Shown piece after piece: positions 13,057 to 27,292 of a stretch of DNA of 32,000 nucleotides; within the stretch, counting starts at the first letter, position 1, and every line of letters starts with the position of its first letter. This DNA is from Kineococcus radiotolerans SRS30216 = ATCC BAA-149 (lineage in GTDB: Bacteria; Actinomycetota; Actinomycetes; Actinomycetales; Kineococcaceae): positions 2,010,001 through 2,042,000 of the forward strand of contig NC_009664.2 of assembly GCF_000017305.1 (NCBI RefSeq), given 5' to 3'. A program made the position numbers and the translations under genes. The notes beneath the pieces are model-generated. The model did not search any database. It was not told where the DNA came from and worked only from the letters and a program-made list of their open reading frames with translations.

Positions 13057-14271
13057 GTGGAGCACTCGCACCAGCACGCCGCGGAACCCCCGGCCCCGCT
13101 GCCGCGCCGCACGCGCGACGTCCTGACCGCCGTCGTCCTCGCGGTGCTCGTGGTGGCCGCCGCGGGCATCGTCGCGACCTGGCCCCGCGACGTCCCCTCG
13201 GCCTCGACGGGGTACGTGGGCGCCCAGACCGTGCGCGGGGAGGTGACGGGGACGCGGATGCACACCTGCCGCGCGGAGCTCGCGGAGGAGCGGCTGCCGG
13301 ACGGCACGATGCCGGAGACGGTGCAGTGCCCGGACGCCACCGTCGCCGTCGACGGCGCGGGCATTGTCACCGTGCCCGTCCCGGCCGCGGTGTTCCACGG
13401 CGGCCTCGGCCCGGGCGACCGGGTCGCGCTGACCCGCTACCCCGCCGAGGCCGGGGCCGCGGAGGCCTACGTGTGGGAGGACTTCGACCGCCGCCTCCCG
13501 CTGGCGGTCGTCCTCGTCGTGTTCGTGCTGTTCACGGTGCTCGTCGGGCGGCGGCGGGGGGTGGCCGCCCTCGTCGGGCTCGGGCTGGGCGGGGCGGCCA
13601 TCGCGTTCCACGTCGTGCCGGCGCTGCTGACCGAGCAGAACGCGGTCGTCGTGGGGCTGAGCTCCTCGACGGCGGTGATGGGGGTGGTGATCTACCTGAC
13701 CCACGGGCTGTCCGCGCGCACGACGGTGGCCTACCTGGGGACGGTCGCGGGGTTGCTCGTCACCGCGGTCGCCGCCGTCCTCGCCGTGGACGGCAGCCAC
13801 CTGGCGGGGCTGGACGACGAGAGCTCCTACACGGTCACGGTCCTCACCGGCGCCGTGGACCTGCGCGGGGTCGTCCTGGCCGGGACCCTCGTCGCGGCCC
13901 TGGGCCTGCTGAACGACGTCACCATCACCCAGGCCGCGGCGGTGTGGGAGGTCCGCGCCGCGGCCCCGCACGCGGGGTTCCGCGACCTGTTCGCGGCGGG
14001 CATGCGGGTGGGGCGGGACCACCTGGCCTCGACCGTCTACACCGTGACGTTCGCCTACGCGGGAGCCGCGCTGCCGACGCTGCTGCTGGTGCGCCTCTAC
14101 GACCAGCCCGCGGGGCAGCTGCTGAACTCCTCCGCGATCGCGGAGGAGCTCGTCCGCTCCGCGGTGGGGGGGATCGCGCTGGCCGTCACGGTGCCGGTGA
14201 CGACGGCCCTGGCGGCCGCGCTGGTGGCCCGGTCCCCGGTGGCGCCGGGGGCGGGGGAGGTCACCCGGTGA
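13057..14271 (+). CDS. YibE/F-family integral membrane protein
   Basis: This is the C-terminal part of the artefactual 991-aa ORF 11296-14271. GTG 13057 is the first plausible start. The architecture is one TM (VLTAVVLAVLVVAAAGIVATW), an extracytoplasmic segment of about 100 aa, then about 6 TM spans containing LNDVTITQAAAVWE and DHLASTVYTVTFAYAGAALP, as in YibE/F proteins. The start is uncertain. Confidence 0.65.
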   Translation: MEHSHQHAAEPPAPLPRRTRDVLTAVVLAVLVVAAAGIVATWPRDVPSASTGYVGAQTVRGEVTGTRMHTCRAELAEERLPDGTMPETVQCPDATVAVDGAGIVTVPVPAAVFHGGLGPGDRVALTRYPAEAGAAEAYVWEDFDRRLPLAVVLVVFVLFTVLVGRRRGVAALVGLGLGGAAIAFHVVPALLTEQNAVVVGLSSSTAVMGVVIYLTHGLSARTTVAYLGTVAGLLVTAVAAVLAVDGSHLAGLDDESSYTVTVLTGAVDLRGVVLAGTLVAALGLLNDVTITQAAAVWEVRAAAPHAGFRDLFAAGMRVGRDHLASTVYTVTFAYAGAALPTLLLVRLYDQPAGQLLNSSAIAEELVRSAVGGIALAVTVPVTTALAAALVARSPVAPGAGEVTR

Positions 14272-15496
14272 GGGGGCGGGCCGGCCGCCGCGAGGCCAGC
14301 GCCAGGCCGGCCGCGGAGGCCAGCAGCAGCGCCGTCAGCAGCAGCCACGGCAGCCCCGCGCCGGGTTCCAGCAGCGCCCCCACCGCGGTGGAGCCCAGCA
14401 GGACGGCCAGCCCGCCGCCGGAGGCCAGCGCCCCGTAGTGGGCCCCGACGTACCGCTCCCCCGCCAGCGGCGGGACGAGGTCGCGGGCCACCGGGCCGGC
14501 CAGCGCCGAGCCCAGGTGCAGCACCACGACGAAGGCCGCCGCGGGAGCGAGCGCCGGCACCCACCCGGGGGCCGGCGCGAAGGTGGCCGCCGCGACGAGG
14601 CCGAAGGCCAGCGCGGACACCGCGAACCCCAGGGGCAGGGCCGTGGCGGCGCCGCGGCGCCGGGCCCAGCGCGCCAGCGGGACCTGCGCGGTGACGGTGA
14701 CGACCGCGGCGAGGACGAACATCAGCCCGAGGGCGTCCTGGGAACCGGTGGCCCGTTCCAGTTCCACCGGCAGGGCCAGGTACATCTGGTTGTAGGCCAG
14801 CAGCAGCGTCGAGTACAGGGCCGCGAAGAGCAGGAACCGCCGGTTGCGCAGGACGGCGGACCACCCCGCGCTCACCGACGTCTCCCGCACCGTGCCGTGG
14901 TCGCGCGGGGCCCACCGCGCGTTGAGCACGAGGACGAGCCCGAAGATCCCCGCGGCGACGAGGCACGTCGTGCGGAACTCCACCGCCAGCAGGACCGCGC
15001 CCAGGACGGGGCCGACCAGGGAGCCCACCTTGCCGACGACGTCGTCGAGGGCGAACAGCTCCGCGCGGGTGATGCCGCCGCCGTCCTCGAGCCGCCGCCC
15101 CTCGTGGGCGAGGCCGGTCTCGACCGCGGGGGAGAACAGGGCCGCGGCGAAACCCGTGAGGACGGTCCCGGCCAGCACCCCCGGCAGCGACGTCGTTGCG
15201 GCCAGGGTGCAGAACCCGGCGATGCGGACCAGGCAGCCGGTGAGCAGGACGGGCCGGACGCCGAACCGGTCGGTGAGCGCCCCCCCGACGAGGAACAGGC
15301 CCTGCTGGCTGAACGTCCGGACCCCCAGGACGATCCCCACGACCCAGCCCGCCAGCCCGAGGCCGGAGGACAGGTGCGCGGCGAGGAAGGGCACGACGAG
15401 GTAGAACCCGACGTTGAACGCCAGCTGGCTCAGCAGGAACAACCGGACGGGCGGTGGCAGGGTGCGCACCGCGCGGAGCTTCGGGCGGGTGGGCAC
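14261..15496 (-). CDS. MFS transporter (12-TMS type), last gene of the metal operon
   Basis: This is the C-terminal 411 codons of ORF 14261-17161. GTG 15496 lies 11 nt after the ATPase stop. The translation is VPTRPKLRAVRTLPPPVRLFLLSQLAFNVGFYLVVPFLAAHL...GALTDRFGVRPVLL (MFS motif-A-like G-x-L-x-D-R-x-G-x-R). The substrate is unknown. The 3' end overlaps the convergent YibE/F gene by 11 nt. Confidence 0.8.
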   Translation of the reverse strand: MPTRPKLRAVRTLPPPVRLFLLSQLAFNVGFYLVVPFLAAHLSSGLGLAGWVVGIVLGVRTFSQQGLFLVGGALTDRFGVRPVLLTGCLVRIAGFCTLAATTSLPGVLAGTVLTGFAAALFSPAVETGLAHEGRRLEDGGGITRAELFALDDVVGKVGSLVGPVLGAVLLAVEFRTTCLVAAGIFGLVLVLNARWAPRDHGTVRETSVSAGWSAVLRNRRFLLFAALYSTLLLAYNQMYLALPVELERATGSQDALGLMFVLAAVVTVTAQVPLARWARRRGAATALPLGFAVSALAFGLVAAATFAPAPGWVPALAPAAAFVVVLHLGSALAGPVARDLVPPLAGERYVGAHYGALASGGGLAVLLGSTAVGALLEPGAGLPWLLLTALLLASAAGLALASRRPARPLTG

Positions 15497-15507
15497 GGCG
15501 GGGAACC

Positions 15508-17712
15508 CTACGCGGCGCCGCCCCCGGCCGGGGACGGGCGGCGCTCGCGCGCCCGCGGGGGGATCCGGTAGCGGATCAGGCGGGCGGAGTTCACGGCGAC
15601 GAACACCGACGAGGCGTTGTGCGCGATCGCGGCCAGCACCGGCGACAGCGCCCCCGCCGCCCCCAGCGCGAGGCCGAAGCCGTTGACCGCGATGGACGCG
15701 CCGTAGTTCTGCTTGATGAGGCCGAGGGTCCGGTCGCCGAGGTCGCGCAGCTGCAGCAGGCGCCGCAGGTCGTCGCCGACGAGCGCGACGTCGGCGGTCT
15801 CCACCGCGACGTCGGTGCCCGACATCCCCATGGCGATGCCGAGGTCGGCCAGCGCCAGGGCGGGCGCGTCGTTGGTGCCGTCCCCGACGACCGCGACGGT
15901 GTACCCCTCGGCCTGCAGCAGCCGCACGACGTCCTGCTTGTCCTCGGGCATGACCTCGGAGCGGAACTCCTCGATGCCCAGTTCGGCGGCGACGGCCGCG
16001 GCGGTCCCGGGGTTGTCGCCGGTGAGCATGACGATCCGCTGGACCCCGCTGGCGCGCAACGCGTCCAGGACCTCCCGGGCCTCCGGGCGCACCTCGTCGC
16101 GCAGGCTGACCAGACCGGTCAGCACCCCGTCGACGGCCAGCAGCAGCGGCGTCTCGGCGGCCCGCTGCAGCTCCTCGACCCACCCGCGGGCGTGGTCGTC
16201 GACCGCCACCCCCTCGGCGTCCATGAGGGCGGCGCTGCCGACCAGCAGGACCCGGCCGTTGGCCTGGACCCGCATCCCCAGCCCCAGCAGGACCTCGCAC
16301 TCCTCGTGGGTGGGGATGAGCAGGCGGCGTTCCTCGGTGGAGCGGATGACGGCCTGGGCCAGCGGGTGCTTGGAGTGGACCTCGGAGTTCGCGGCCTCGG
16401 ACAGCACCTGCTCGGGGGTCCAGTCGTCGCGGAAGGACAGCACGTTCGTCACGACGGGACGGCCCACGGTGAGGGTCCCGGTCTTGTCGAAGACGAACGC
16501 GTCGACGCGCCCGGCGGCCTCCAGGTGCGAACCGCCCTTGACGAGGATGCCGCGCCGCGCGCCGTTGCCGATGGCGGCGCTGATGGCCGTGGGCGTGGCC
16601 AGGCCGACCGCGCAGGGGCAGGCGATGAGCAGCATCGTCATGGCCCGGCGCACGTCGCGGGTCAGCACGAGCGTCGCCAGCGCCAGCCCGAAGGAGGCGG
16701 GGACGAACTTGCGGCTGAACGCGTCGCCGACGGTCTGCACCGGCGCGCGGTCGGCCTGGGCGTCCTCGACGCGGGCGATGATCCGGCCCACCGCGGTGTC
16801 CTGGCCGGTGGCGGTGGCGCGCACCACGAGGCGGCCGCGCAGGTTCACGCTGCCGGCCAGCACGGGGTCGCCGGCGGTGCGCTGGACGGGGAGGTTCTCC
16901 CCCGTCAGCGCGGCCTGGTCCACGACGGCCTCGCCCTCGACGACCTCGCCGTCGACGGGGACGGTGGACTGCTCGAACACGACGACGAGGTCGCCGACGT
17001 GCAGCTCGGCGAGGTCGACCTGCTGCTCGACGACCGACCCGTCGGCGGCGGTGCGGCGGACCCAGGCGTGGGTCTCGCTGCCGGTGAGCAGGTCCGCGAT
17101 CGCGCGCCGGGTGCGGCGCAGGGTGAGGTCCTGCAGGTACTCCCCGATGTTCAGCAGCCACAGCACGGTGAGGGCGACGACGTTCTCGCGCAGCAGCAGG
17201 CTCGCCACCGTCGCGGCCGAGACCAGGGCGTCGGTGCCGGCGCTGCGGCGGCCGAGGAGCGAGCCGACCGCCCCCTTGAGGAAGGGGTAGCCGGAGAAGA
17301 TCGTGACGCCGGTGGCGATGAGGCGGGATGTCGGCCCGAGCAGCGGCGGGCGCCCGAAGGCGTAGCGGCGCAGCCCGAGCAGGGCCAGCGCGGCCCCGCC
17401 GACGGCGATGCGGGCGACCTCGCCGTTGCCGACGTCGGCCGAGCGCGGGGTGCGGGAGGGGGCGGCGTCGGCGGGGACGGCGGCGCTGGAGGCGACCGCC
17501 GCGGTGAGCTCCTCCACGCCGAGGGCGTCGGGGTCGAAGTGCACGACGACCCCGCCCGTCACCGGGTAGGCGCGGGCGAGGCGGACCCCGTCGAGGCGGT
17601 CCAGCGCCTCCTCCGCCGCGACCGCGCGCCCGGGGCTGCGGCGCAGCCAGTCCGCCTGGAAGCGGGCCCGCCCGGCGGTGACCGAGACGACGTTCAGCGG
17701 GGAGAGCAGCAC
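15508..17712 (-). CDS. Heavy-metal-translocating P1B-type ATPase, CtpC-like
   Basis: 734 aa with actuator LTGENLPV, TM CPC motif LLIACPCAVGLATP, phosphorylation site DKTGTLT, hinge GDGTNDAPAL and terminal TM motif HNASSVFVAVNSARL. The N-terminal ferredoxin-like HMA-type segment (VSVTAGRARFQADWLRRSPGRAVAAEEALDRLDGVRLARAYPVTGGVVVHFDP) has no CxxC. A DUF1490/PacL-like gene precedes it, as for mycobacterial CtpC/CtpG/CtpV. Metal specificity cannot be decided from sequence. Confidence 0.9.
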   Translation of the reverse strand: MLLSPLNVVSVTAGRARFQADWLRRSPGRAVAAEEALDRLDGVRLARAYPVTGGVVVHFDPDALGVEELTAAVASSAAVPADAAPSRTPRSADVGNGEVARIAVGGAALALLGLRRYAFGRPPLLGPTSRLIATGVTIFSGYPFLKGAVGSLLGRRSAGTDALVSAATVASLLLRENVVALTVLWLLNIGEYLQDLTLRRTRRAIADLLTGSETHAWVRRTAADGSVVEQQVDLAELHVGDLVVVFEQSTVPVDGEVVEGEAVVDQAALTGENLPVQRTAGDPVLAGSVNLRGRLVVRATATGQDTAVGRIIARVEDAQADRAPVQTVGDAFSRKFVPASFGLALATLVLTRDVRRAMTMLLIACPCAVGLATPTAISAAIGNGARRGILVKGGSHLEAAGRVDAFVFDKTGTLTVGRPVVTNVLSFRDDWTPEQVLSEAANSEVHSKHPLAQAVIRSTEERRLLIPTHEECEVLLGLGMRVQANGRVLLVGSAALMDAEGVAVDDHARGWVEELQRAAETPLLLAVDGVLTGLVSLRDEVRPEAREVLDALRASGVQRIVMLTGDNPGTAAAVAAELGIEEFRSEVMPEDKQDVVRLLQAEGYTVAVVGDGTNDAPALALADLGIAMGMSGTDVAVETADVALVGDDLRRLLQLRDLGDRTLGLIKQNYGASIAVNGFGLALGAAGALSPVLAAIAHNASSVFVAVNSARLIRYRIPPRARERRPSPAGGGAA

Positions 17713-17716
17713 GGGC

Positions 17717-18025
17717 TCAGTGCTCGTGGTCGTGCCCGGCCTGCGGGGTCGGCGGCACCGGCACCTGCTCGCCGAGCTCGTCGTAGGCCTGCGCGACGAT
17801 GTCGCCGGTGCCCAGCCGCAGCCGCTCGACGCCGGTCTCGGCGGCGCGGGAGGCCTTGATGCCGGCCTTGGCGCCGTTCACGGCGAGGCGGCGCAGGGCG
17901 TTGCCCCCGCGGCCGTCGCCGAGGGCCTTGACGATGCCGGCCGAGGCGACGGCGGTGAGGGCGAGGCGCCCGAGGGGGGCGGCGATGGGCAGCACGAGGG
18001 ACCTCCTGGTACGACGGGGGTTCAT
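17717..18025 (-). CDS. PacL/DUF1490-like small membrane protein (P-ATPase-associated metal chaperone-like), C-terminal His/Asp/Glu motif
   Basis: This is the ORF 17717-18076 frame. ATG 18025 overlaps the upstream stop (ATGA). The translation is MNPRRTRRSLVLPIAAPLGRLALTAVASAGIVKALG...GDIVAQAYDELGEQVPVPPTPQAGHDHEH-stop. It has one N-terminal hydrophobic helix, an Ala/Lys-rich helical middle and a terminal HDHEH. It ends 4 nt upstream of the P1B ATPase. Confidence 0.7.
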   Translation of the reverse strand: MNPRRTRRSLVLPIAAPLGRLALTAVASAGIVKALGDGRGGNALRRLAVNGAKAGIKASRAAETGVERLRLGTGDIVAQAYDELGEQVPVPPTPQAGHDHEH

Positions 18026-19116
18026 TCCACCACGAGGGGCGCGGCGGACGCGTGGCCGCTGCGCGGTCCCAGCCACGCCTCGAACCCGTCCTCCCCCGGG
18101 TCGCCGTGGCCGGCGGCCTCCTCGTCCGGGGTGGCGAGGACGTCGGCGAAGGCGCGGCGGACGCGTTCGCGCTCAGCGGGTTCGGTGCCGGTGACGACGA
18201 GGTGGGTGCTGCGCCCGCCCGGCGACCAGGGACCCGTCTCGCCGATGCTGAGCTGCCCGCCGGCGCCGTTCCACGCGCAGACGGTGCCCGGCCGGCTGGT
18301 GAGGCGGAAGGTGCCGCGGGCGCGCAGCCGCCCGGCCCCGAGGTCCTCGACGCGGTCCAGCAGCCGGTCCGGGTGCAGCGTGCCCCGGGAGGTCAGCTCG
18401 ATCGTCCAGACCCCGGAGGTGTCGGGGACCGGGGGGCGACGCACCGTCAGGAGGTCGGCGCGCGCCCCGGTGCACCGGCCCGCGCCGAGGGGGGCGAGCA
18501 CCTGCGCGCCGTCGGCGCCCTCCAGCTCCAGCACGGGGACCGCGGGCCCGCACAGGTGGGCCAGCAGGGTCCGGGCGCGGTCGTCGGCGGTCCCGGCGGC
18601 CAGGACGAGGTCGGCCTCGTCGAGCTGCCCGGCCAGGGCCTCGCCGACGGCGCGCTCGTCGTCGTCGTGGGTGGCGAGGCCGCGCTCGGAGAGCAGGGCG
18701 TCGCCGAGGAGGTCCTCGACGAGGGTGGCGGCGTCGACGACGGTGACGACGCCGCGCACGGCGACGGCCTCCCGCAGGTCCTCGTCCGCGCACAGGGCCG
18801 CCACCAGCGGGGTGGGGTCGCTCCCGACGGGCGGGACCAGCACGAGGGTGGACCAGCGCCCGCCGGCGGCGATGGCGGCCACGGTGGGCAGGACGTCCTC
18901 GCGCTGGGCGCAGCCGGCGCAGGCGTGCTCGAGGGGGACGACGACGTCCTCGACCACGCCGCCGAAGTCGCTGACGACGCGCCGCAGGCCGTCGGGGGTG
19001 AGGTCGTAGCGCAGGACGGCGGCGCCGGGGACGTCGCAGAACACCGTGCCGGTGGCCAGGTCGCGCTGGAGCGGGTGGACCGAGGTCAGGACGGTGATCG
19101 GCAGGACGGGGGACAC
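18022..19116 (-). CDS. COG0523 (CobW/G3E GTPase)-derived protein lacking a Walker A P-loop, with CobW_C-like C-terminal domain
   Basis: This is the C-terminal 364 codons of ORF 18022-19833. GTG 19116 lies 5 nt after GGAGG; in-frame GTGs at 19122 and 19128 are alternatives. It is colinear with the COG0523 layout. PITVLTSVHPLQRD replaces PVTVLTGFLGAGKTT. EHACAGCAQREDVLP replaces the GCICC-type metal motif. LVLVPPVGSDPTPL replaces IETTGLADP. VVTVVDAATL and QLDEADLVLAAG are conserved-like. The C-terminal VWTIELTSRGTLHPDRLLDRVEDLG...STHLVVTG is CobW_C-like. Confidence 0.65.
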   Translation of the reverse strand: MSPVLPITVLTSVHPLQRDLATGTVFCDVPGAAVLRYDLTPDGLRRVVSDFGGVVEDVVVPLEHACAGCAQREDVLPTVAAIAAGGRWSTLVLVPPVGSDPTPLVAALCADEDLREAVAVRGVVTVVDAATLVEDLLGDALLSERGLATHDDDERAVGEALAGQLDEADLVLAAGTADDRARTLLAHLCGPAVPVLELEGADGAQVLAPLGAGRCTGARADLLTVRRPPVPDTSGVWTIELTSRGTLHPDRLLDRVEDLGAGRLRARGTFRLTSRPGTVCAWNGAGGQLSIGETGPWSPGGRSTHLVVTGTEPAERERVRRAFADVLATPDEEAAGHGDPGEDGFEAWLGPRSGHASAAPLVVE

Positions 19117-19129
19117 GGACACCTCCACA

Positions 19130-19144
19130 TGAGAACGATTCTCG
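19130..19144. promoter_or_regulatory. Zur-box-like palindrome TGAGAACGATTCTCG (core GAGAA-CGA-TTCTC perfect) between the COG0523-like operon and the divergent orphan ORF
   Basis: Read directly. It lies 14 nt upstream of the GTG at 19116 and downstream of a minus-strand TAACGT -10-like hexamer. It is adjacent to a plus-strand TAGGGT -10-like hexamer (19147-19152). It matches 10 of 15 positions of the actinobacterial Zur core TGAAAATCATTTTCA as I remember it, and resembles the second box at 19818-19832. Confidence 0.5.
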
Positions 19145-19185
19145 TCTAGGGTGACGTTAGCAGTCCCCCGACCCCTGGAGGAGCC

Positions 19186-19563
19186 GTGCCCCGCCCCGCC
19201 CCCGCCCCGTCCCCGTCCCGGGGCTGGGTGCTCGTCCCCGCGAGCGAACCCGGTCTGCTGCACCGGGCGCGGCACGTCGTGCGCCGCTCGCGCGACCTCG
19301 TCCTCGTGGCGCTGGACCCCGGGGCGACGGCCCCCGCCCACGCCTGCCTGGGCGTCGGCGTGGAGTTCGCCCGGTCCGCCCCGCGGCCGGGGCGGCTGGT
19401 GTGGCTGCGCGACCTCACCGCCACCGAGACCGCCGCGGCGCTGGAGTGGATCGGCGGACCCCTGGCGGGTCTGGGCGACCCGCCCGCCGCGCTGCGCCAC
19501 CGGGTCGCGGCGACGCAGCCGGCGGGGGTCCACTCGCGAGCGGGGGGTCAGCCGCGCGCGTAG
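19186..19563 (+). CDS. Hypothetical protein (125 aa), no recognisable domain
   Basis: GTG 19186 follows GGAGGAG (19177-19183). Reading the codons myself, about 119 of 125 third positions are G/C, which is the coding signature of this genome, whereas the overlapping alternative frames are Arg/Pro-rich junk. The translation is [96 protein letters not shown]... The 3' end overlaps the convergent rpmE2 by 16 nt. Confidence 0.5.
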
Positions 19564-19802
19564 CGGCGCCGGAACTTCTCCACGCGCCCCTCGGTGTCCA
19601 GGACCCGGGCGTTGCCGGTCCAGAACGGGTGGCTGGCCGCCGAGACGTCGACGTCGAACACCGGGTAGGTGGCGCCGTCCTCCCACTCCAGGGTCGGCAG
19701 GTCGCGGCGCGCCGCGAGGGTCGAGTTGGACAGGAACGCGGTGCCCGCGGCCTTGTCGCGGAAGACGACGGGGCCGTAGGCGGGGTGCAGGTCCGGTTTC
19801 AC
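19548..19802 (-). CDS. rpmE2: 50S ribosomal protein L31 type B (cysteine-less, zinc-independent paralogue)
   Basis: [84 protein letters not shown]. This is the typical type-B L31 (KxxxHP...HPFxTG, no CxxC). GTG 19802 follows AGGAGGA. Confidence 0.92.
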
Positions 19803-19817
19803 GATTCCTCCTGTAGA

Positions 19818-19832
19818 TGAGATACGTTCTCA
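19818..19832. promoter_or_regulatory. Zur-box-like palindrome TGAGATACGTTCTCA (TGAGA-N5-TCTCA) in the 74-bp divergent rpmE2 / rpmB promoter region
   Basis: Read directly; the 5-nt arms are exact reverse complements. It lies 16 nt from the rpmE2 start and 45 nt from the L28 start. It is the only AT-enriched stretch in the region. It matches 10 of 15 positions of the remembered Zur core. C- ribosomal paralogue operons are classic Zur targets. Confidence 0.55.
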
Positions 19833-19876
19833 ATAGTACGACCCACCCGTCCGTCCGTCACGACCAGGGAGGACAC

Positions 19877-20113
19877 GTGTCCGCTCGCTGCCAGGTCACC
19901 GGGGCCGTCCCGGGCTTCGGCAAGTCCGTCTCGCACTCGCACCGGCGCACCAACCGCCGCTTCGACCCCAACGTCCAGCGCAAGAGGTGGTTCGTCCCCT
20001 CCCTGGGGCGCACCGTGACGCTGACCGTCTCCGCGCGCGGCATCAAGACCGTCGACGAGCGCGGCATCGAATCCGTGATCGCGGACCTGCGGGCCCGCGG
20101 GGAGAGGTTCTGA
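19877..20113 (+). CDS. rpmB: 50S ribosomal protein L28 (paralogue lacking the Cys zinc ribbon)
   Basis: GTG 19877 follows GGGAGGA. The translation is [78 protein letters not shown]. The L28 signature is present with only one Cys. Confidence 0.9.
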
Positions 20114-20280
20114 TGGCGAAGTCCCAGGACGTCCGCCCCGTCATCAAGCTCCGCTCCACCGGGGGCACCGGGTACACCTACGTCACCCGCAAGAACCGCC
20201 GCAACGACCCCGACCGCATGGTCGTCCGCAAGTACGACCCCGTGCTGCGCCGGCACGTCGACTTCCGAGAGGAGCGCTGA
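20113..20280 (+). CDS. rpmG: 50S ribosomal protein L33 (cysteine-less paralogue)
   Basis: ATG 20113 overlaps the L28 stop (TGATG). The translation is [55 protein letters not shown]. The L33 pattern is present with no Cys. Confidence 0.92.
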
Positions 20281-20283
20281 ACC

Positions 20284-20589
20284 GTGGCCAAGAAGAGCAA
20301 GATCGCCAAGAACGAGCAGCGCAAGGAGGTCGTCGCCCACCACGCCGCGCGCCGGGCGGAGCTCAAGCGCACCGCCGTGGCCGTCACCGCCGGCGAGGAG
20401 GAGCGCGCCGCCGCGCGCCTCGCCCTGCAGCGCCTCCCCCGCGACGCCAGCCCGACCCGCGTGCGCAACCGCGACGCCGCCGACGGCCGGCCCCGCGGGA
20501 CGCTGCGGAAGTTCGGCCTTTCCCGCATCCGGGTGCGCGAGATGGCCCACGCCGGGGAACTGCCCGGCGTCACGAAGTCGAGCTGGTGA
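20284..20589 (+). CDS. rpsN: 30S ribosomal protein S14 (long, cysteine-less form)
   Basis: [31 protein letters not shown]...[43 protein letters not shown]. This is the 101-aa long S14 with no CxxC. Confidence 0.92.
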
Positions 20590-20602
20590 GAGGAGGACCG
20601 CC

Positions 20603-20725
20603 GTGAAGGTCCGCGCGTCCCTGAAGAGCCTCAAGCAGAAGGAGGGCTCCATCGTCGTCCGCCGCCGCGGGAAGACGTACGTCCTCAACAAGCGCAACCC
20701 CCGCTGGAAGGCGCGCCAGGGCTGA
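20603..20725 (+). CDS. rpmJ: 50S ribosomal protein L36 type B (YkgO-like, cysteine-less); below the ORF-track size cut-off
   Basis: Own translation from GTG 20603, which follows GAGAGGAGGA: [40 protein letters not shown], stop TGA 20723-20725. This matches the MKV-x-SLKS...RRG...V-N-x-NPR-KARQG pattern of zinc-independent L36 paralogues. Confidence 0.85.
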
Positions 20726-23112: not shown

Positions 23113-23358
23113 CTACCGGGGAGGCCGCGACCCGGCCCGCCGACCGCCCACCGCCCCCACGACCGCCGTCGTCACGACGCCCAGGCCGGACAGCAGCAGG
23201 ACCCCGGCGGCGTACCAGCGCCAGTCCCAGCTGCGGTCGAGGACCTCGTGGGCGGCGACGGCGACGGCGACCGCCAGCAGGACGAGGCCGCCGAGGACGG
23301 CGCCGAGGTCGGGGGTGCGGGGCGGGCGGGGCTCGTCCTCGCGCGGGTGCTCGGTCAC
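23113..23358 (-). CDS. Small two-TM membrane protein, translationally coupled to the PspC/LiaF-like gene
   Basis: GTG 23358 overlaps the upstream stop (GTGA at 23355-23358). The translation is VTEHPREDEPRPPRTPDLGAVLGGLVLLAVAVAVAAHEVLDRSWDWRWYAAGVLLLSGLGVVTTAVVGAVGG. No domain is recognised. Confidence 0.55.
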   Translation of the reverse strand: MTEHPREDEPRPPRTPDLGAVLGGLVLLAVAVAVAAHEVLDRSWDWRWYAAGVLLLSGLGVVTTAVVGAVGGRRAGSRPPR

Positions 23359-24830
23359 GGTCCCTCCAGGGTGTCGGACCCGGCGGCACCGACGCGGACC
23401 TCACCGGTCCAGGCGACGGCGACGAGCTCGGGGGTGCCGGACGGCACGGTCCAGCCGTCGGGGTCCTCGCCGCGGACGACGACGGCCTCGGCGAGGGCGG
23501 CGGCGCCGGGACCCACGGCGAGGACCTGCGTGAGGTCGGTGCCGCCGAGGGTGGTGGCCCCGGCGCTGTCCTGGCCGGTGCCGCCGGGTTCGCCGCCGAT
23601 CCCGACGACCCCGTCGTCGCCCTGCCAGCGCAGCGACCCGGCGAGGACGCGCACCTCGACGAGGACGGTGGCGTCGTCGGGGACGAGGACGTCGAGGCGG
23701 CCGGCGGCGACGGTGGCGCGCGCCGGGCCGCCGTCGAGGGCGGAGGGGTCGACCTGCAACCGGCCCACGGCGGAGCTGCGGGCGTCGGCGCCGGTGGGCC
23801 GCCACGTCTGGTCGACCTGCCAGGTCCAGCCGGTGGCGGGGGGCAGCACGGCGGCGGCGACGGCGCAGAGCGCGGCCGGCCAGGCGAGACCCACGAGGGC
23901 GGTGCGGCGGGCCCGCAACCCGGCGACGACGGCGCCGGTCCCCATGACGGCGACGGCCGCGCACAGGGCCAGCGGCAGGGTCCGGCCCGGCAGGTCGAGG
24001 AGCACCCCGGCCAGGACGACGGCGCCGGCGGCGAGCAGGGCCAGGCCGAGGACGGCGGTGGTGAGCAGCGGGGAACCGGGGCGGCGGCGGGCGCGGGACG
24101 CCTCGGCCTTCGCGACCGCCCGCTGCCCCTTGAGGGCGGCGTCGCGGAGCTTGGCCTCCAGCTTCGCCTGGCGGGCGGCGGCGGCGCGTTCGGTGCTGGA
24201 GCCGAACCCGGCGACGGGTTCGCGCGGGGCCTCGACGCGCGGGGCCTTGACGAGCGAGACGCGGGGGGCGGCGGGGGCGGGCCCGGCCGCGGGAGCGCGT
24301 TCGGGGGCGGCGGGGGCGGGCCCGGCCGCGGGAGCGCGTTCGGGGGCGGCGGGGCGCGCGGGGGGCTCGGGGCGCGGGAACCGCTGGTCGCGCAGCAGCC
24401 ACCAGCACAGCAGCCCGACGAGGGTGGTGACGAGGAAGCCCCAGCCGGGCCCGTCCCACCCGCCGGTCCCGACCCCGATCAGGGCGCGCGGGACGGCGAG
24501 GTCGACGACGACGAGGGCGCCGGCCAGCCAGGCCGCTCCCGAGACGTCGCCGCGGGTGGCGGCCTCGACCTCGATGCGGCCGCCGTCGCCGGTGTCCCGG
24601 CGGGCGTCGGGCATCAGCAGCCACGCCAGGCCGTAGCAGGCCAGGCCCAGGCCGCCGACGACGGTGAGGGCGGCGACGATCCCCCGCACCAGCAGCGGGT
24701 CCAGGCCCGTGCGGGCCGCGACGCCGCCGCAGACCCCCGCGAACCAGCGGTCCTCGCCGCGGACGGCGCCCAGGGCGCGCACGGAGGTGAAGAACCCGGC
24801 CCGGCCGTCCGGCTGGACGCTGCTGCTCAC
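23355..24830 (-). CDS. PspC-domain membrane protein with Pro/Ala-rich repeat linker and LiaF-like C-terminal domain
   Basis: 491 aa. The N-terminus RGEDRWFAGVCGGVAARTGLDPLLVRGIVAALTVVGGLGLACYGLAWLLMPD is a PspC domain. Several TM spans follow, then the tandem PAAPERAPAAGPA x2. The C-terminal part GRLDVLVPDDATVLVEVRVLAGSLRWQGD resembles the beta-rich LiaF/DUF2154-type domain. Confidence 0.75.
   Translation of the reverse strand: MSSSVQPDGRAGFFTSVRALGAVRGEDRWFAGVCGGVAARTGLDPLLVRGIVAALTVVGGLGLACYGLAWLLMPDARRDTGDGGRIEVEAATRGDVSGAAWLAGALVVVDLAVPRALIGVGTGGWDGPGWGFLVTTLVGLLCWWLLRDQRFPRPEPPARPAAPERAPAAGPAPAAPERAPAAGPAPAAPRVSLVKAPRVEAPREPVAGFGSSTERAAAARQAKLEAKLRDAALKGQRAVAKAEASRARRRPGSPLLTTAVLGLALLAAGAVVLAGVLLDLPGRTLPLALCAAVAVMGTGAVVAGLRARRTALVGLAWPAALCAVAAAVLPPATGWTWQVDQTWRPTGADARSSAVGRLQVDPSALDGGPARATVAAGRLDVLVPDDATVLVEVRVLAGSLRWQGDDGVVGIGGEPGGTGQDSAGATTLGGTDLTQVLAVGPGAAALAEAVVVRGEDPDGWTVPSGTPELVAVAWTGEVRVGAAGSDTLEGP
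24264..24341. repeat. Exact 39-bp tandem duplication (2 full copies plus a partial third) inside the PspC/LiaF-like gene
   Basis: GGGGGCGGCGGGGGCGGGCCCGGCCGCGGGAGCGCGTTC at 24264-24302 is repeated exactly at 24303-24341, followed by GGGGGCGGCGGGGCG. It is in frame (13 aa, PAAPERAPAAGPA on the minus strand). Confidence 0.9.
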
Positions 24831-24842
24831 GGTTCGAGCCTG

Positions 24843-25253
24843 TCAGAAGACCCAGCCGAGGCCGAGCAGGCCCTGGCCGAGGATCAGGTCGAGGACGACG
24901 AGGCCGACGGCGACGGCGAGGGCGCCGGAGACGTCGCCGCGGTGCGCGGCCTGGGCCTCGATGCGGCCGGTCGCGTCGGGCAGCAGGGCCCACGCGAGGC
25001 CGTAGAGGCCCAGGCCGAGACCGCCGAACAGGCTGAGGACGACGAACGCGACGCGCACGGCGAGGGGGTCGACGCCCAGGCGCCGGGCGGTGCCGCCGGC
25101 GACCCCGGCGACCCAGCGGTCGGAGCTGCGGGTCGGGCCGGAGCGGCGGAGCGCGGCGAAGAACCGGTCGGCGGCGCTCGGCCGCACCGGCGTGGCCTCC
25201 AGGTGCGGTTCCTGGTGGGTCTGGGAGTGCTGGGTGTTCTCGGTGGATGTCAT
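24843..25253 (-). CDS. Small PspC-domain membrane protein (136 aa)
   Basis: This is the C-terminal part of the artefactual ORF 24843-26369, starting at ATG 25253. The translation is MTSTENTQHSQTHQEPHLE...SSDRWVAGVAGGTARRLGVDPLAVRVAFVVLSLFGGLGLGLYGLAWALLPD, followed by a second TM. It shares the segment IE-x-A-x-RGDVSGA with the 491-aa paralogue. Confidence 0.8.
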   Translation of the reverse strand: MTSTENTQHSQTHQEPHLEATPVRPSAADRFFAALRRSGPTRSSDRWVAGVAGGTARRLGVDPLAVRVAFVVLSLFGGLGLGLYGLAWALLPDATGRIEAQAAHRGDVSGALAVAVGLVVLDLILGQGLLGLGWVF

Positions 25254-25367
25254 GGTTCGAGACTGCTCCCCGGAGCACCCCCGGGGCATCGGGGGTTCCC
25301 CTGAGTCGACCCTGGTCCTCGGGCTCGGGGGATCCCCGGGGCGGGGTCCGCGTGCCACGATCGGCGG

Positions 25368-26609
25368 GTGAGCACACGGACGACGGAACTCCCGGACGCG
25401 CCCCCGGCGGCGCGGCCGCCGCTGGTGCGGGCGGTGGAGCACCGCCGCGTCGCCGGGGTGGCCGCGGGGGTCGCCGCCCACACCGGCATCCCGTTGTCGC
25501 GGGTGCGGGCGGTGCTCGTCGCCGGGGCGTTCCTCGGGGGGTTCGGCCTGGCCCTCTACGCGGCGTGGTGGCTGCTGCTGCCCGACGAGCGCCAGCTCGC
25601 GCTGCCGCCCGAGCAGCGCTCCGACCCCTCGGCGTGGGTCCTGGCCCACCGCAACGCCCTCGTCGGCGTCGCGCTGGTCGTGGGGTTCGGGCTGGTGCCC
25701 GCGATGAACCTGCTGGACGGCTCGGCCCGGATCACCGCGCCGGCGCTGGTGGCGGGGGCGGGGCTGGTGCTGGCCTGGAGCCAGCTCGACGCGACGCGGC
25801 GGCGGCGGTTCGTGGAGGACTCCACCGCGAGCCGGACCGCGGCGCTGCGGGTGGGCCTCGGGGTGACCCTCGTGGTGCTGGCGGTGCTGTTCCTCTTCAC
25901 CGTCGGGGACCCGGAGCAGTTCTGGCGCTCGGCCCTGGCGGGGCTGGGGATCCTCGCCGGGGCGGCGGTGGTGCTGGCGCCGTGGGCGGTGCGGTTGTGG
26001 CAGGACCTCGGCGAGGAGCGCGCGGCGCTGGCCCGGGAGCAGGAACGGGCCGAGTTCGCCGCCCACGTCCACGACTCGGTGCTGCAGACGCTGACCCTCA
26101 TCCAGAAGCGTTCCGGCGACGGGGGCGAGGTCGCCCGGCTGGCCCGGCGCCAGGAGCGCGAGCTGCGGCAGTGGCTGTACGGCGACCACGGGCAGACCGC
26201 GGGGACGCTGGGCGCGGCGCTGCGGGCGGCGGCGACGGAGGTGGAGGACGTGTCGGGGGCGGTCGTGGAGGTCGTCGTCGTGGGGGACCTCGACAACCGC
26301 CCCCTCGACAAGCCGCTGACGTCGCTGGCCCAGGCCGCGCGCGAGGCGCTGCTGAACGCGGGGCGGCACGCGGGGGGGACGGTGTCGGTGTTCGCCGAGC
26401 CGGCGGGTGCCCCGGGAGGGGGTGGGGTGGAGGTGTTCGTGCGCGACCGCGGTCCGGGCTTCGAGGTGGACGACGTCCCCGAGGACCGGCTGGGGGTGCG
26501 GGAGTCGATCATCGGCCGGATGCGGCGGGCCGGGGGTTCGGCCAGCGTCCGCCGTCCCGCCGACGGGGGCACCGAGGTCGCCCTGCGGCTGCCGGGGGGT
26601 GCGGCGTGA
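25368..26609 (+). CDS. Sensor histidine kinase with N-terminal PspC domain (HisKA_3 / NarX-LiaS type)
   Basis: GTG 25368. The PspC domain is VEHRRVAGVAAGVAAHTGIPLSRVRAVLVAGAFLGGFGLALYAAWWLLLPDE. Four TM spans follow. The H-box is ERAEFAAHVHDSVLQTLTLI, the N-box EALLNAGRHAG, and the G-box VRDRGPGF. Confidence 0.88.
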   Translation: MSTRTTELPDAPPAARPPLVRAVEHRRVAGVAAGVAAHTGIPLSRVRAVLVAGAFLGGFGLALYAAWWLLLPDERQLALPPEQRSDPSAWVLAHRNALVGVALVVGFGLVPAMNLLDGSARITAPALVAGAGLVLAWSQLDATRRRRFVEDSTASRTAALRVGLGVTLVVLAVLFLFTVGDPEQFWRSALAGLGILAGAAVVLAPWAVRLWQDLGEERAALAREQERAEFAAHVHDSVLQTLTLIQKRSGDGGEVARLARRQERELRQWLYGDHGQTAGTLGAALRAAATEVEDVSGAVVEVVVVGDLDNRPLDKPLTSLAQAAREALLNAGRHAGGTVSVFAEPAGAPGGGGVEVFVRDRGPGFEVDDVPEDRLGVRESIIGRMRRAGGSASVRRPADGGTEVALRLPGGAA

Positions 26610-27292
26610 TCCGCGTCCTCGTGGTCGACGACCACCGCATGGTCCGCTCGGGGGTCCGCGCGGAGCTGTCCGGCGCGCAGGACCTGGAGGTCGTGGGCGA
26701 GGCCGCGGACGTGGCGGGCGCGGTGGCGGCGGTGGAGCGGTTGCGGCCCGACGTCGTGCTGCTCGACGTGCACCTGCCCGCCGGGCCGGACGAGAACCCC
26801 GCCCCGGGCGCGGGGTCCGGCGGGGCGCAGGTGCTCGCGCGGTCGGCGGCGCTGCTGAGCGCCGACCCGCCGGTGCGGTTCCTGGCCCTGTCGGTCTCCG
26901 ACGCCGCCGACGACGTCATCGCCGTGATCCGCCGCGGCGCGCGCGGGTACGTGACGAAGGCGATCAGTGGCGACGACCTCGCCGCGGCGGTGCGCCGGGT
27001 CGCGGAGGGGGACGCGGTGTTCTCCCCGCGGCTGGCGGGGTTCGTGCTCGACGCGTTCGGCGCGGGGGCGGGTGAGGTCGCCGCGGCCGACGACGAGCTG
27101 GACCGGCTCTCGGCGCGCGAGCGGGAGGTGATGCGGCTCATCGCCCGCGGCTACGCCTACAAGGAGGTGGCGAAGGAGCTGTTCATCTCGGTGAAGACGG
27201 TGGAGACCCACGTGTCGGCGGTGCTGCGCAAGCTGCAGCTGTCCAACCGCAACGAGCTGACCCGCTGGGCCGCGGCCCGCCGCCTGCTCTAG
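26606..27292 (+). CDS. NarL/LuxR-family response regulator (REC + HTH_LuxR)
   Basis: GTG 26606 overlaps the kinase stop (GTGA). The translation is VIRVLVVDDHRMVRSGVRAEL...DVVLLDVHLP (phospho-acceptor Asp)...LSAREREVMRLIARGYAYKEVAKELFISVKTVETHVSAVLRKLQLSNRNEL. The receiver carries an unusual insertion of about 20 aa (AGPDENPAPGAGSGGAQVLARSAALL) after the acceptor Asp. Confidence 0.9.
   Translation: MIRVLVVDDHRMVRSGVRAELSGAQDLEVVGEAADVAGAVAAVERLRPDVVLLDVHLPAGPDENPAPGAGSGGAQVLARSAALLSADPPVRFLALSVSDAADDVIAVIRRGARGYVTKAISGDDLAAAVRRVAEGDAVFSPRLAGFVLDAFGAGAGEVAAADDELDRLSAREREVMRLIARGYAYKEVAKELFISVKTVETHVSAVLRKLQLSNRNELTRWAAARRLL

Follow-up and report, generated by a model that had tools for sequence, protein, structure and literature searches.

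The gene at 18022..19116 of the window (the whole 32 kb stretch of Kineococcus radiotolerans DNA analysed here) raises the question of what function can be served by a COG0523-type protein whose GTP-binding machinery is missing. The gene lies upstream of genes for a PacL-like protein and a P1B-type ATPase, and a sequence-only reading of the locus had proposed that it encodes a pseudo-GTPase adaptor for a membrane metal pump, a new role for this family.

Fold, GTPase motifs and metal site

The gene, termed here mrf-like, and the regions of its product that bear on this question are as follows.

18022..19116, minus strand: mrf-like gene, 364 aa, COG0523 fold, without P-loop
GTG 19122, minus strand: alternative start of the mrf-like gene, two codons earlier, the start used in database entry P0001
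19060..19086, minus strand: Walker A position, T11-D19 (TSVHPLQRD) instead of GxxGxGKT, between strand 1 and helix 1
18910..18927, minus strand: H-x-C-x-x-C motif, H64-A-C66-A-G-C69, in place of CxCC
18808..18843, minus strand: Walker B/switch II position, residues 92-103 (LVLVPPVGSDPTP), versus IETTGLADP
18136..18405, minus strand: CobW_C domain, aa 238-327 (Pfam PF07683, E 3.6e-14)

The open reading frame is genuine, with GC3 rising to 1.0 precisely at ~19113 and remaining at 1.0 over its whole length, and a GGAGG Shine-Dalgarno sequence lies 5 nt 5' of GTG 19116. An upstream in-frame start supplying a P-loop, for which the sequence-only reading had seen no evidence, could be ruled out. Neither G....GK[ST] nor GK[ST] occurs in the 603-aa stop-to-stop ORF of the gene, and GK[ST] is absent from all six frames of 18900-19900, so that no upstream start can bring back the P-loop; GC3 also places the start at ~19116.

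The proposed COG0523 relationship was borne out by domain searches and by structure prediction. Besides the CobW_C match, Pfam cobW matches the protein at 1.1e-7, but only over aa 59-173, corresponding to profile positions 54-150, and the P-loop portion of the profile is thus left unmatched. The AlphaFold2 model (pLDDT 93.6, pTM 0.91) returned E. coli YjiA structures as the sole strong Foldseek matches in the PDB (4ixm, E 3.4e-14, 354 columns). A PDB sequence search with the single protein gave no match at E up to 1, the family profile retrieved YjiA alone (E 0.004), and no solved Mrf-type structure was found in the PDB searches. According to the predicted model, the protein is a two-domain COG0523/YjiA fold, made up of a G3E-type alpha/beta domain and CobW_C.

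The motifs required of a COG0523 GTPase are missing from this fold, in agreement with the earlier description of the Walker A and switch regions. The LTGYLGAGKTS of a canonical actinobacterial COG0523 protein aligns with LTSVHPLQRDL, and its switch II sequence IEASGLADP aligns with LVPPVGSDP, where neither the acidic residue nor the glycine is kept and no ExxG is left. The alignment likewise identified no NKxD base-recognition motif, including after the QLDEAD helix. Among the features that define COG0523 membership the fold is hence present, and Walker A, Walker B/switch II, NKxD and CxCC are all absent. Since every GTPase motif is missing, the protein, as judged from its primary structure, cannot act as a conventional GTP-driven metallochaperone, as had been argued. 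The canonical zinc metallochaperone GTPases of COG0523, such as E. coli YjiA/YeiR, A. baumannii ZigA, B. subtilis ZagA and eukaryotic ZNG1, share with it the fold, CobW_C, Zur regulation and a metal site after strand 3, but it differs from them in lacking Walker A, Walker B, NKxD and the middle Cys of CxCC, and its sequence similarity to YjiA is only marginal.

The metal site had been described as ACAGC, with two Cys at a spacing different from that of CxCC. The canonical motif is indeed lost, but the spacing is unchanged: the GGCLCC of the canonical COG0523 protein aligns with HACAGC, the two retained Cys are the first and last of CxCC, and the middle Cys alone is missing. The same residue has been lost in Rv0106, which reads CXSC (Haas 2009, PMC2770081). 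Residues H64/C66/C69 align with the zinc-binding H62/C64/C67 of Mrf. The zinc site of Mrf comprises C64xxC67 plus His residues, and each protomer can bind as many as three zinc ions (PMC7431043). In 131 sequences, Mrf included, C66 and C69 never vary and H64 shows at least 90% conservation; this check covered, among the four flanking His mutated in Mrf, only H62 (H64 here).

Relationship to Mrf/Rv0106

The top NCBIfam match of the protein is MRF (NF047431), with 101.8 bits and aa 7-298 aligned to profile positions 4-316, versus 73 bits for ZigA, in an alignment starting only at aa 56. MRF also ranked first for 7 further family members. The score is nonetheless far under the NF047431 equivalog cutoff of 375 bits, with other family members scoring 91-140 bits and Rv0106 562, and the protein is filed as Mrf-like for this reason. 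The kinship with Rv0106-type proteins brought up in the sequence-only reading was recovered with hhalign, in which the family profile aligned with Rv0106 from N- to C-terminus (probability 99.8, E 1e-29, 336 columns), both the degenerate P-loop region and HxCxxC falling within the alignment; the same profile gave E 0.23 against a canonical COG0523 protein from Georgenia. In BLASTP, 142/142 cluster representatives match M. tuberculosis Mrf at ~29-127 bits, versus less than 30 bits for the canonical COG0523 protein. Identity between the Mrf-like protein and M. tuberculosis Mrf is only ~24%. Intermediate sequences were identified (P0373, P0382). These sequence comparisons indicate that the protein is a Kineococcus relative of Mrf/Rv0106 within a COG0523 branch devoid of P-loop.

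The absence of the P-loop had been presented as special to this gene, a claim that does not stand. Walker A was detected in 0/363 relatives (0/119 family proteins, 0/120 Mrf proteins and 0/124 representatives), and CxxC is kept in 358 of them. The loss, as seen in these sequences, is common to the whole Rv0106/Mrf branch and may have occurred once or in parallel with Mrf; relationships were judged by profile scores, with one canonical COG0523 sequence compared. The GTPase-motif losses of Rv0106 were described in 2009 (Haas 2009, PMC2770081), and the missing P-loop is hence genuine but already known for Mrf/Rv0106.

Relatives of the protein were found in 389 species genomes and form 346 clusters at 50% identity (E <=1e-10), with 27 invariant columns in an alignment of 30 diverse sequences. 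The finding matters chiefly as a clarification, because this large actinobacterial family is annotated as "GTP-binding protein / G3E family GTPase" although no member has a P-loop. The family belongs with Mrf, generally presented as a mycobacterial protein, and Mrf-type zinc-controlled ribosome hibernation may hence be widespread in Actinomycetota.

Like Mrf (MSMEG_6069, Rv0106; NF047431), the K. radiotolerans protein combines a COG0523 two-domain fold lacking Walker A with H-x-C-x-x-C for CxCC and full-length profile homology, and its gene has a Zur box upstream and zinc-free ribosomal protein paralogues alongside. Unlike Mrf, it lacks a ~26-aa insertion in CobW_C, has the C-terminal motif DGFEPWLG where Mrf has DPFGDWHDDP, and belongs to a host in the Kineosporiales rather than the Mycobacteriales.

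Zur boxes and neighbouring genes

The elements surrounding the mrf-like gene are the following.

19130..19144, no strand assigned: Zur-box-like 7-1-7 palindrome, CGAGAATCGTTCTCA on the minus strand
19818..19832, no strand assigned: second Zur-box-like palindrome, inside the 74-bp divergent L31/L28 promoter region
19548..19802, minus strand: rpmE2, zinc-free (C-) L31 paralogue (Pfam Ribosomal_L31, E 2.5e-24)
19877..20725, plus strand: alternative ribosomal protein operon (L28, L33, S14, L36)
19877-20113, plus strand: L28 paralogue of this operon
20113-20280, plus strand: L33 paralogue of this operon
20284-20589, plus strand: S14 paralogue of this operon
20603-20725, plus strand: L36 paralogue of this operon
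17717..17995, minus strand: PacL-like DUF1490 protein, 92 aa from GTG 17995 (Pfam DUF1490, E 1.7e-11)
15508..17712, minus strand: CtpC-type P1B ATPase, CPC in TM4, HN in TM6, DKTGT; 4 nt 3' of pacL
14261..15490, minus strand: MFS transporter gene, last of the same-strand gene string

A search of the whole 32 kb window with TGAGAATNATTCTCA, allowing up to 3 mismatches, returned only the two palindromes listed above, versus 0.03 matches expected, which substantiates the Zur-like box noted earlier upstream of the gene. This box precedes GTG 19116 by 14 nt and the GGAGG Shine-Dalgarno sequence by 3 nt. Scans for sigma-70 promoters and intrinsic terminators over 14000-20000 returned nothing and are uninformative at 75% GC. 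The genes for the L31, L28, L33, S14 and L36 paralogues are all within 1.7 kb of the mrf-like gene, and gene context was counted with tblastn over 83 related loci. A Zur box is present no more than 1.5 kb upstream of the mrf-like homologue in 66/83 of these, and a majority have genes for alternative ribosomal proteins at a distance of up to 3 kb (L28 in 55/83, S14 in 54/83, L31 in 49/83). In Nocardioides, the mrf-like gene is part of an L31-L32-L36-L28-L33-S14 operon, and most of the loci with no ribosomal paralogues nearby (about one quarter) keep the Zur box. The same motif also precedes znuA in Modestobacter. On this comparative evidence, the conserved partners of the family are the Zur box and the zinc-free ribosomal protein paralogues.

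The PacL-like protein presents a hydrophobic N-terminal segment and a GHDHEH metal-binding motif at its C-terminus. An ATGA coupling between the mrf-like gene and pacL had been proposed, and the overlap itself does exist (ATG 18025-18023, TGA 18024-18022), with the in-frame ATG at 18025 as a possible pacL start. The most likely start, however, is GTG 17995, which is preceded by AGGAGG, and a 92-aa PacL with this type of start is called in five relatives, some of them with no abutting upstream gene. With this start the two genes are 26 nt apart and not ATGA-coupled. Homologues of the ATPase downstream carry the name "P-type ATPase C", and the P1B6-like ATPases have been defined elsewhere (PMC9374683). 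A homologue of the MFS transporter was detected in one related locus only, where it precedes the mrf-like gene by ~7 kb.

The sequence-only reading had asked whether the clade always neighbours PacL/ATPase genes; PacL/CtpC lie within 10 kb of the mrf-like gene in only 4/83 related loci, two of them convergent. Besides the window, three further Kineococcus genomes (L004, L005, L086) have the tight same-strand string mrf-like-pacL-ctpC, and the mrf-like/pacL junction sequence is conserved in L004 and L005, for which it was aligned. In the close relative K. rhizosphaerae (76% identity) the mrf-like gene is followed by an amino-acid permease gene instead, and CtpC orthologues with 84-89% identity occur with no adjoining mrf-like gene in K. 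sp. TBRC 1896, K. endophyticus, K. gynurae and K. terrestris. These unlinked Kineococcus pacL-ctpC pairs have their own Zur-like box, with pacL boxes in K. sp. TBRC 1896 and K. endophyticus, or directly follow L31. The pacL genes of Motilibacter (L045), K. gynurae (L085), Quadrisphaera (L089) and Modestobacter (L090) showed no Zur box upstream, so that Zur control of pacL-ctpC is lineage-specific. Judging from this distribution, the adjacency most plausibly reflects two Zur-regulon modules that have come to lie side by side.

Putative role in zinc starvation and alternative explanations

Taken as the whole explanation, Mrf-like identity together with an Mrf-type role in zinc starvation is the reading that we regard as probable. 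The Mrf-like branch retains both domains of the fold, as well as the His and the outer two Cys of the metal site; its Walker A, Walker B and NKxD motifs disappeared long ago. The Zur box overlapping the promoter of the mrf-like gene would lead to expression when zinc is scarce, and the same signal would govern the neighbouring zinc-free L31, L28, L33, S14 and L36 paralogues. By analogy with mycobacterial Mrf, the H64/C66/C69 site would report zinc occupancy: the zinc-bound protein would be cleared by the Clp system, and the zinc-free protein would build up, bind the remodelled ribosome at its 30S subunit and aid the loading of a hibernation factor (long HPF/Mpy) with no nucleotide hydrolysis. 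In mycobacteria, zinc-bound Mrf is degraded via ClpS/ClpP, and Mrf attaches to 30S and brings in Mpy, the hibernation factor, without ATP or GTP (PMC7431043), a GTP-independent ribosome role in zinc starvation that is already established (Li 2018/2020; PMC6094098, PMC7431043). The pacL-ctpC pair would be a separate zinc-homeostasis module, now in the same Zur-controlled transcription unit in this Kineococcus subclade, and a co-regulated neighbour of the mrf-like gene instead of a dedicated partner.

The protein might alternatively be a GTP-independent zinc buffer or chaperone, whose H-x-C-x-x-C motif holds zinc or passes it in zinc limitation to clients, for instance proteins still being synthesized or the remodelled ribosome, with no specific recruitment of a hibernation factor. 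The invariance of C66 and C69, the near invariance of H64 and the several zinc ions taken up by each Mrf protomer (PMC7431043) are in keeping with this possibility, as are a Zur box suited to zinc starvation, the zinc chaperones among COG0523 relatives and the idea of a ribosome-linked chaperone (PMC11672702). Known metal transfer by COG0523 proteins is, however, coupled to GTP through machinery that is absent here, and zinc bound to Mrf flags the protein for degradation, not for delivery (PMC7431043), which makes this alternative rather unlikely.

A pseudo-GTPase adaptor on PacL/CtpC, delivering or sensing metal for the membrane pump, is considerably more doubtful. It would fit the gene string and junction maintained in four Kineococcus genomes, the His-rich C-terminal metal motif of PacL facing a predicted zinc site in the Mrf-like protein, and the zinc responsiveness of both modules. 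Yet PacL/CtpC accompany the family far less often than ribosomal paralogues do (4/83 versus ~55/83 loci), each module occurs apart from the other within Kineococcus, and M. tuberculosis PacL-Ctp pairs function with no such protein (PMC9374683). The proposal of a new role is unsupported; common Zur regulation accounts for the adjacency. A narrower version, in which the protein was recruited in the K. radiotolerans subclade as a zinc-sensing PacL-CtpC partner, docking on PacL and gating or feeding the pump, has a similarly small chance of being correct, and the wider distribution implies that any such partnership is not an ancestral or general role. If true, a single P-loop-less zinc sensor would link ribosome shutdown with membrane metal transport. 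That the gene is merely the decaying remnant of a COG0523 GTPase and no longer functional, as the loss of every catalytic motif might suggest, is highly improbable and contradicted by the conservation observed across the family, given the sustained GC3, the invariant columns, the many species genomes with relatives, the confident predicted fold, the conserved Zur box and the demonstrated function of the mycobacterial member.

In M. tuberculosis, PacL-CtpC pumps are known to protect the cell from zinc poisoning. As in the M. tuberculosis PacL1-CtpC effluxosome, a DUF1490 protein that carries a His-rich motif at its C-terminus is paired in K. radiotolerans with a P1B6-like ATPase (CPC, HN), but the K. 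radiotolerans pair sits behind a Zur-type box, whereas zinc excess induces PacL1-CtpC, upstream of which there is no COG0523-like gene (Boudehen 2022, PMC9374683). Another parallel is the Zur-dependent MSMEG_6045-6071 region of M. smegmatis, encompassing alternative ribosomal proteins, MRF and the PacL1-CtpC orthologues MSMEG_6059/6058, which zinc starvation induces 15-17-fold (Goethe 2020, PMC7174638). The K. radiotolerans locus unites the same three modules, but those of M. smegmatis are separate transcription units spread over ~25 genes, znuABC included, whereas here the mrf-like gene and pacL-ctpC are arranged head to tail behind a single Zur box. The locus provides further comparative evidence that in several lineages PacL-CtpC pumps belong to the Zur (zinc-starvation) regulon, and the role of these pumps may hence exceed detoxification.

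Fold and loss of the GTPase motifs

The stretch has a GC content of about 75%, and the proteins encoded there share 73-91% identity with Kineococcus proteins. The features of the locus are listed below; all assignments of ribosomal proteins, PacL, ATPase and transporter are from Pfam/NCBIfam, and the L36 paralogue is shorter than the size limit of the ORF listing.

Features around the mrf-like gene
15508-17712, minus strand: P1B ATPase, downstream of the mrf-like gene
17717-17995, minus strand: DUF1490/PacL protein, downstream of the mrf-like gene
18022-19116, minus strand: mrf-like ORF, with GGAGG 5 nt 5' of its GTG and GC3 reaching 1.0 exactly at that start
19130-19144: Zur-box-like palindrome, 3 nt before the Shine-Dalgarno sequence of the mrf-like gene
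19186-19563, plus strand: ORF of 125 aa with coding-type GC3, between L31 and the mrf-like gene
19548-19802, minus strand: rpmE2, L31 paralogue, upstream of the mrf-like gene
19818-19832: Zur-box-like palindrome between L31 and L28
19877-20725, plus strand: L28-L33-S14-L36 operon, divergent from rpmE2
20603-20725, plus strand: L36 paralogue (40 aa) after S14
Downstream of the mrf-like gene, same strand: MFS transporter

Pfam searches with the mrf-like protein matched the CobW_C domain (E 3.6e-14) and the cobW nucleotide-binding domain (E 1.1e-7), the latter only from profile position 54 on, leaving the P-loop part of the profile unmatched. A confident AlphaFold2 model based on a 131-sequence alignment (pLDDT 93.6, pTM 0.91) strongly matched only the COG0523 protein YjiA among solved structures (E 3.4e-14), in agreement with the COG0523 relationship proposed in the sequence-only reading. 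Alignment with a canonical actinobacterial COG0523 protein placed the Walker A motif GYLGAGKTS against SVHPLQRDL, EASGLADP against VPPVGSDP and GCLCC against ACAGC, and revealed the absence of NKxD. The replacement of Walker A and of the switch-like motif noted in that reading was hence borne out, as was its conclusion that this cannot be a conventional GTPase chaperone. The metal motif is indeed replaced, but its spacing is not altered as had been claimed: the two cysteines are spaced like the outer pair of CxCC, of which the middle cysteine alone is lost. No upstream start restores a P-loop, as GK[ST] is absent from the entire 603-aa stop-to-stop ORF and G....GK[ST] from any frame upstream of the gene.

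Walker A is missing from each of the 119 close homologues with a length of 300 aa or more, and all of them contain CxxC, usually as LEHAC(L/V)SCA(L/V)RED. HMMER searches against 1.84 billion cluster representatives returned 765 relatives at E values up to 1e-3, 346 at 1e-10 and 124 at 1e-30. Walker A was found in none of the 124 full-length proteins from the best 150 relatives, and in none of the 363 proteins examined overall. The loss of the P-loop is ancient and common to the whole family. Public names for these proteins (P0004-P0120 and P0126-P0235) include "GTP-binding protein", "G3E family GTPase", "CobW family GTP-binding protein" and "...GTPase MRF", which are misleading given the absence of Walker A in all 363. 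When one genome per species was scanned, 389 species proved to contain relatives, and every one of the 80 loci kept belongs to the Actinomycetota (Kineococcus, Cellulomonas, Promicromonospora, Nocardioides, Actinotalea, Quadrisphaera and others).

Relationship to Mrf

The top NCBIfam model for the mrf-like protein was NF047431, "ribosome hibernation factor-recruiting GTPase MRF" (101.8 bits), aligned from profile position 4, while the ZigA model (73 bits) aligned only from residue 56; seven other family members presented the same pattern. The sequence used for Rv0106, the Mycobacterium tuberculosis Mrf, was validated by its score (562 bits on NF047431) and by its 99% identity to database proteins P0121 and P0122. 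In hhalign comparisons, the family profile matched Rv0106 end to end (probability 99.8, E 1e-29, 336 columns), against E 0.23 for a canonical COG0523 protein from Georgenia; in the PDB, it matched only YjiA (E 0.004). Every representative matched M. tuberculosis Mrf by BLASTP (approximately 29-127 bits), and none matched the canonical COG0523 protein at 30 bits or more. Intermediate sequences connect the family with Mrf. Across both, C66 and C69 never vary, and conservation of H64 is at least 90%.

Rv0106 was taken as an outgroup by Haas et al., who described the same motif losses in it (PMC2770081), and MSMEG_6069/Rv0106 were named Mrf by Li et al. 2018, who described co-regulation by Zur with C- ribosomal proteins and a requirement for Mpy binding (PMC6094098). 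Mrf binds zinc through its C64xxC67 motif and flanking histidines; ClpS recognises the zinc-bound form, which ClpP1P2 then degrades, and Mrf recruits Mpy without ATP or GTP (Li et al. 2020, PMC7431043). The P-loop loss is therefore an already published hallmark of the Mrf branch. The protein studied here has all the sequence and context features of this branch that could be tested. Nonetheless, it scores under the NCBI equivalog threshold for MRF, is only about 24% identical to Mrf, lacks the CobW_C insertion and has a different C-terminal motif, and for these reasons we call it Mrf-like rather than Mrf. Its most likely function would be that of a zinc-responsive, nucleotide-independent, ribosome-associated factor.

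Zur-type boxes and ribosomal paralogues

Scanning the window for the 7-1-7 palindrome TGAGAATNATTCTCA with up to three mismatches identified only the two listed instances, against 0.03 expected, confirming the Zur-like box previously noted upstream of the mrf-like gene. In 66 of 83 related loci, a match at 11 or more of 14 positions lies no more than 1.5 kb upstream of the homologue, and such sites account for the majority of the 116 matches over 1.54 Mb. In Modestobacter the motif precedes znuA and, as a weaker match (10/14), the smtB-zur operon, which validates the palindrome as a Zur box. The position of the box abutting the Shine-Dalgarno sequence of the mrf-like gene suggests repression.

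Paralogues of L28 (55/83), S14 (54/83), L31 (49/83), L36 (46/83) and L32 (31/83) are encoded within 3 kb of the homologue, which in Nocardioides exalbidus lies inside an operon (X in L31-X-L32-L36-L28-L33-S14). With an L36 paralogue found after S14, the alternative ribosomal protein operon of the window reads L28-L33-S14-L36. The 125-aa ORF, without Pfam or NCBIfam match, keeps its position in five Kineococcus loci (47-72% identity) and is a called gene in two.

Linkage to pacL and ctpC

The window ATPase carries CPC in TM4 and HN in TM6, the "P1B6-like" signature of CtpC (PMC9374683), and its database homologues are named P-type ATPase C. The sequence-only reading had envisaged the mrf-like protein as an adaptor for this pump, coupled to PacL through an ATGA overlap. 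The overlap of the mrf-like stop with an in-frame pacL ATG (17995-18025) exists. However, the most probable start of pacL is GTG 17995, within a conserved AGGAGG-N6-GTG; five relatives share this start, which is also used where no gene precedes pacL. The overlap is thus probably not the coupling point, and probably incidental. Furthermore, ATPase and PacL genes lie near the homologue in only four of 83 loci, two Kineococcus loci arranged head-to-tail as in the window and two, a Nakamurella MAG and Motilibacter, convergent. The gene order of the window recurs in K. sp. NBC_00420, but in K. rhizosphaerae (protein 76% identical) the downstream gene encodes an amino-acid permease, and other Kineococcus species encode CtpC orthologues (84-89% identity) away from the mrf-like gene. 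The proposed adaptor role is not supported.

Two of these species, K. sp. TBRC 1896 and K. endophyticus, have pacL-ctpC behind the aldose epimerase gene known from the flank of the cluster in the window; there a separate Zur-like box precedes the GTG of pacL by 13 nt (L084 4691-4705; L087 3691-3705), the sole match of at least 11/14 in each locus. In K. terrestris, pacL-ctpC comes directly after L31 of an alternative ribosomal protein cluster (L088 1636-4436). Including its position behind the mrf-like gene in the window clade (15508-17995), three routes link pacL-ctpC to Zur-type control in Kineococcus; neither an own box nor an L31-linked arrangement was found in K. gynurae. The M. smegmatis PacL1 and CtpC orthologues, MSMEG_6059/6058, lie in one cluster with MRF and alternative ribosomal proteins; their induction is 15-17-fold under zinc starvation and 9-13-fold when zur is mutated (PMC7174638). 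Together, the three architectures and this induction suggest that several actinobacteria use pumps of the CtpC type as zinc-starvation genes, the opposite of the zinc-poisoning picture in M. tuberculosis. Zur boxes of exporter genes have precedents for both signs of control (PMC5472717, PMC9827704). Most simply, pacL-ctpC and the mrf-like gene can be read as two modules of the Zur regulon, joined under a single operator in one Kineococcus subclade.

Beyond the aldose epimerase gene, 23113-27292 encodes three PspC-domain proteins, a PspC-domain histidine kinase and a LuxR-type response regulator. In K. sp. TBRC 1896 and K. endophyticus, pacL-ctpC is flanked by this block too, and the synteny shows that in the window lineage aldose epimerase and pacL are separated by the alternative ribosomal protein/mrf-like/GGDEF block. 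In the window, ctpC adjoins a gene for a YibE/F-family membrane protein (approximately 13500-14271, plus strand), as in three other Kineococcus loci (L084, L087, L088), and in Cellulomonas two such genes adjoin the operon of alternative ribosomal proteins (L002 4299-6828); this gene may be a further member of the zinc-starvation neighbourhood. A zinc supercluster in Modestobacter lacusdianchii (L090 1-10214) combines znu-type ABC genes, an ArsR/SmtB gene, a FUR-family gene that is probably zur, ArsP_1/DUF1980 genes, pacL-ctpC, a second P-type ATPase and znuA-znuC-znuB, with a 12/14 Zur box before znuA.
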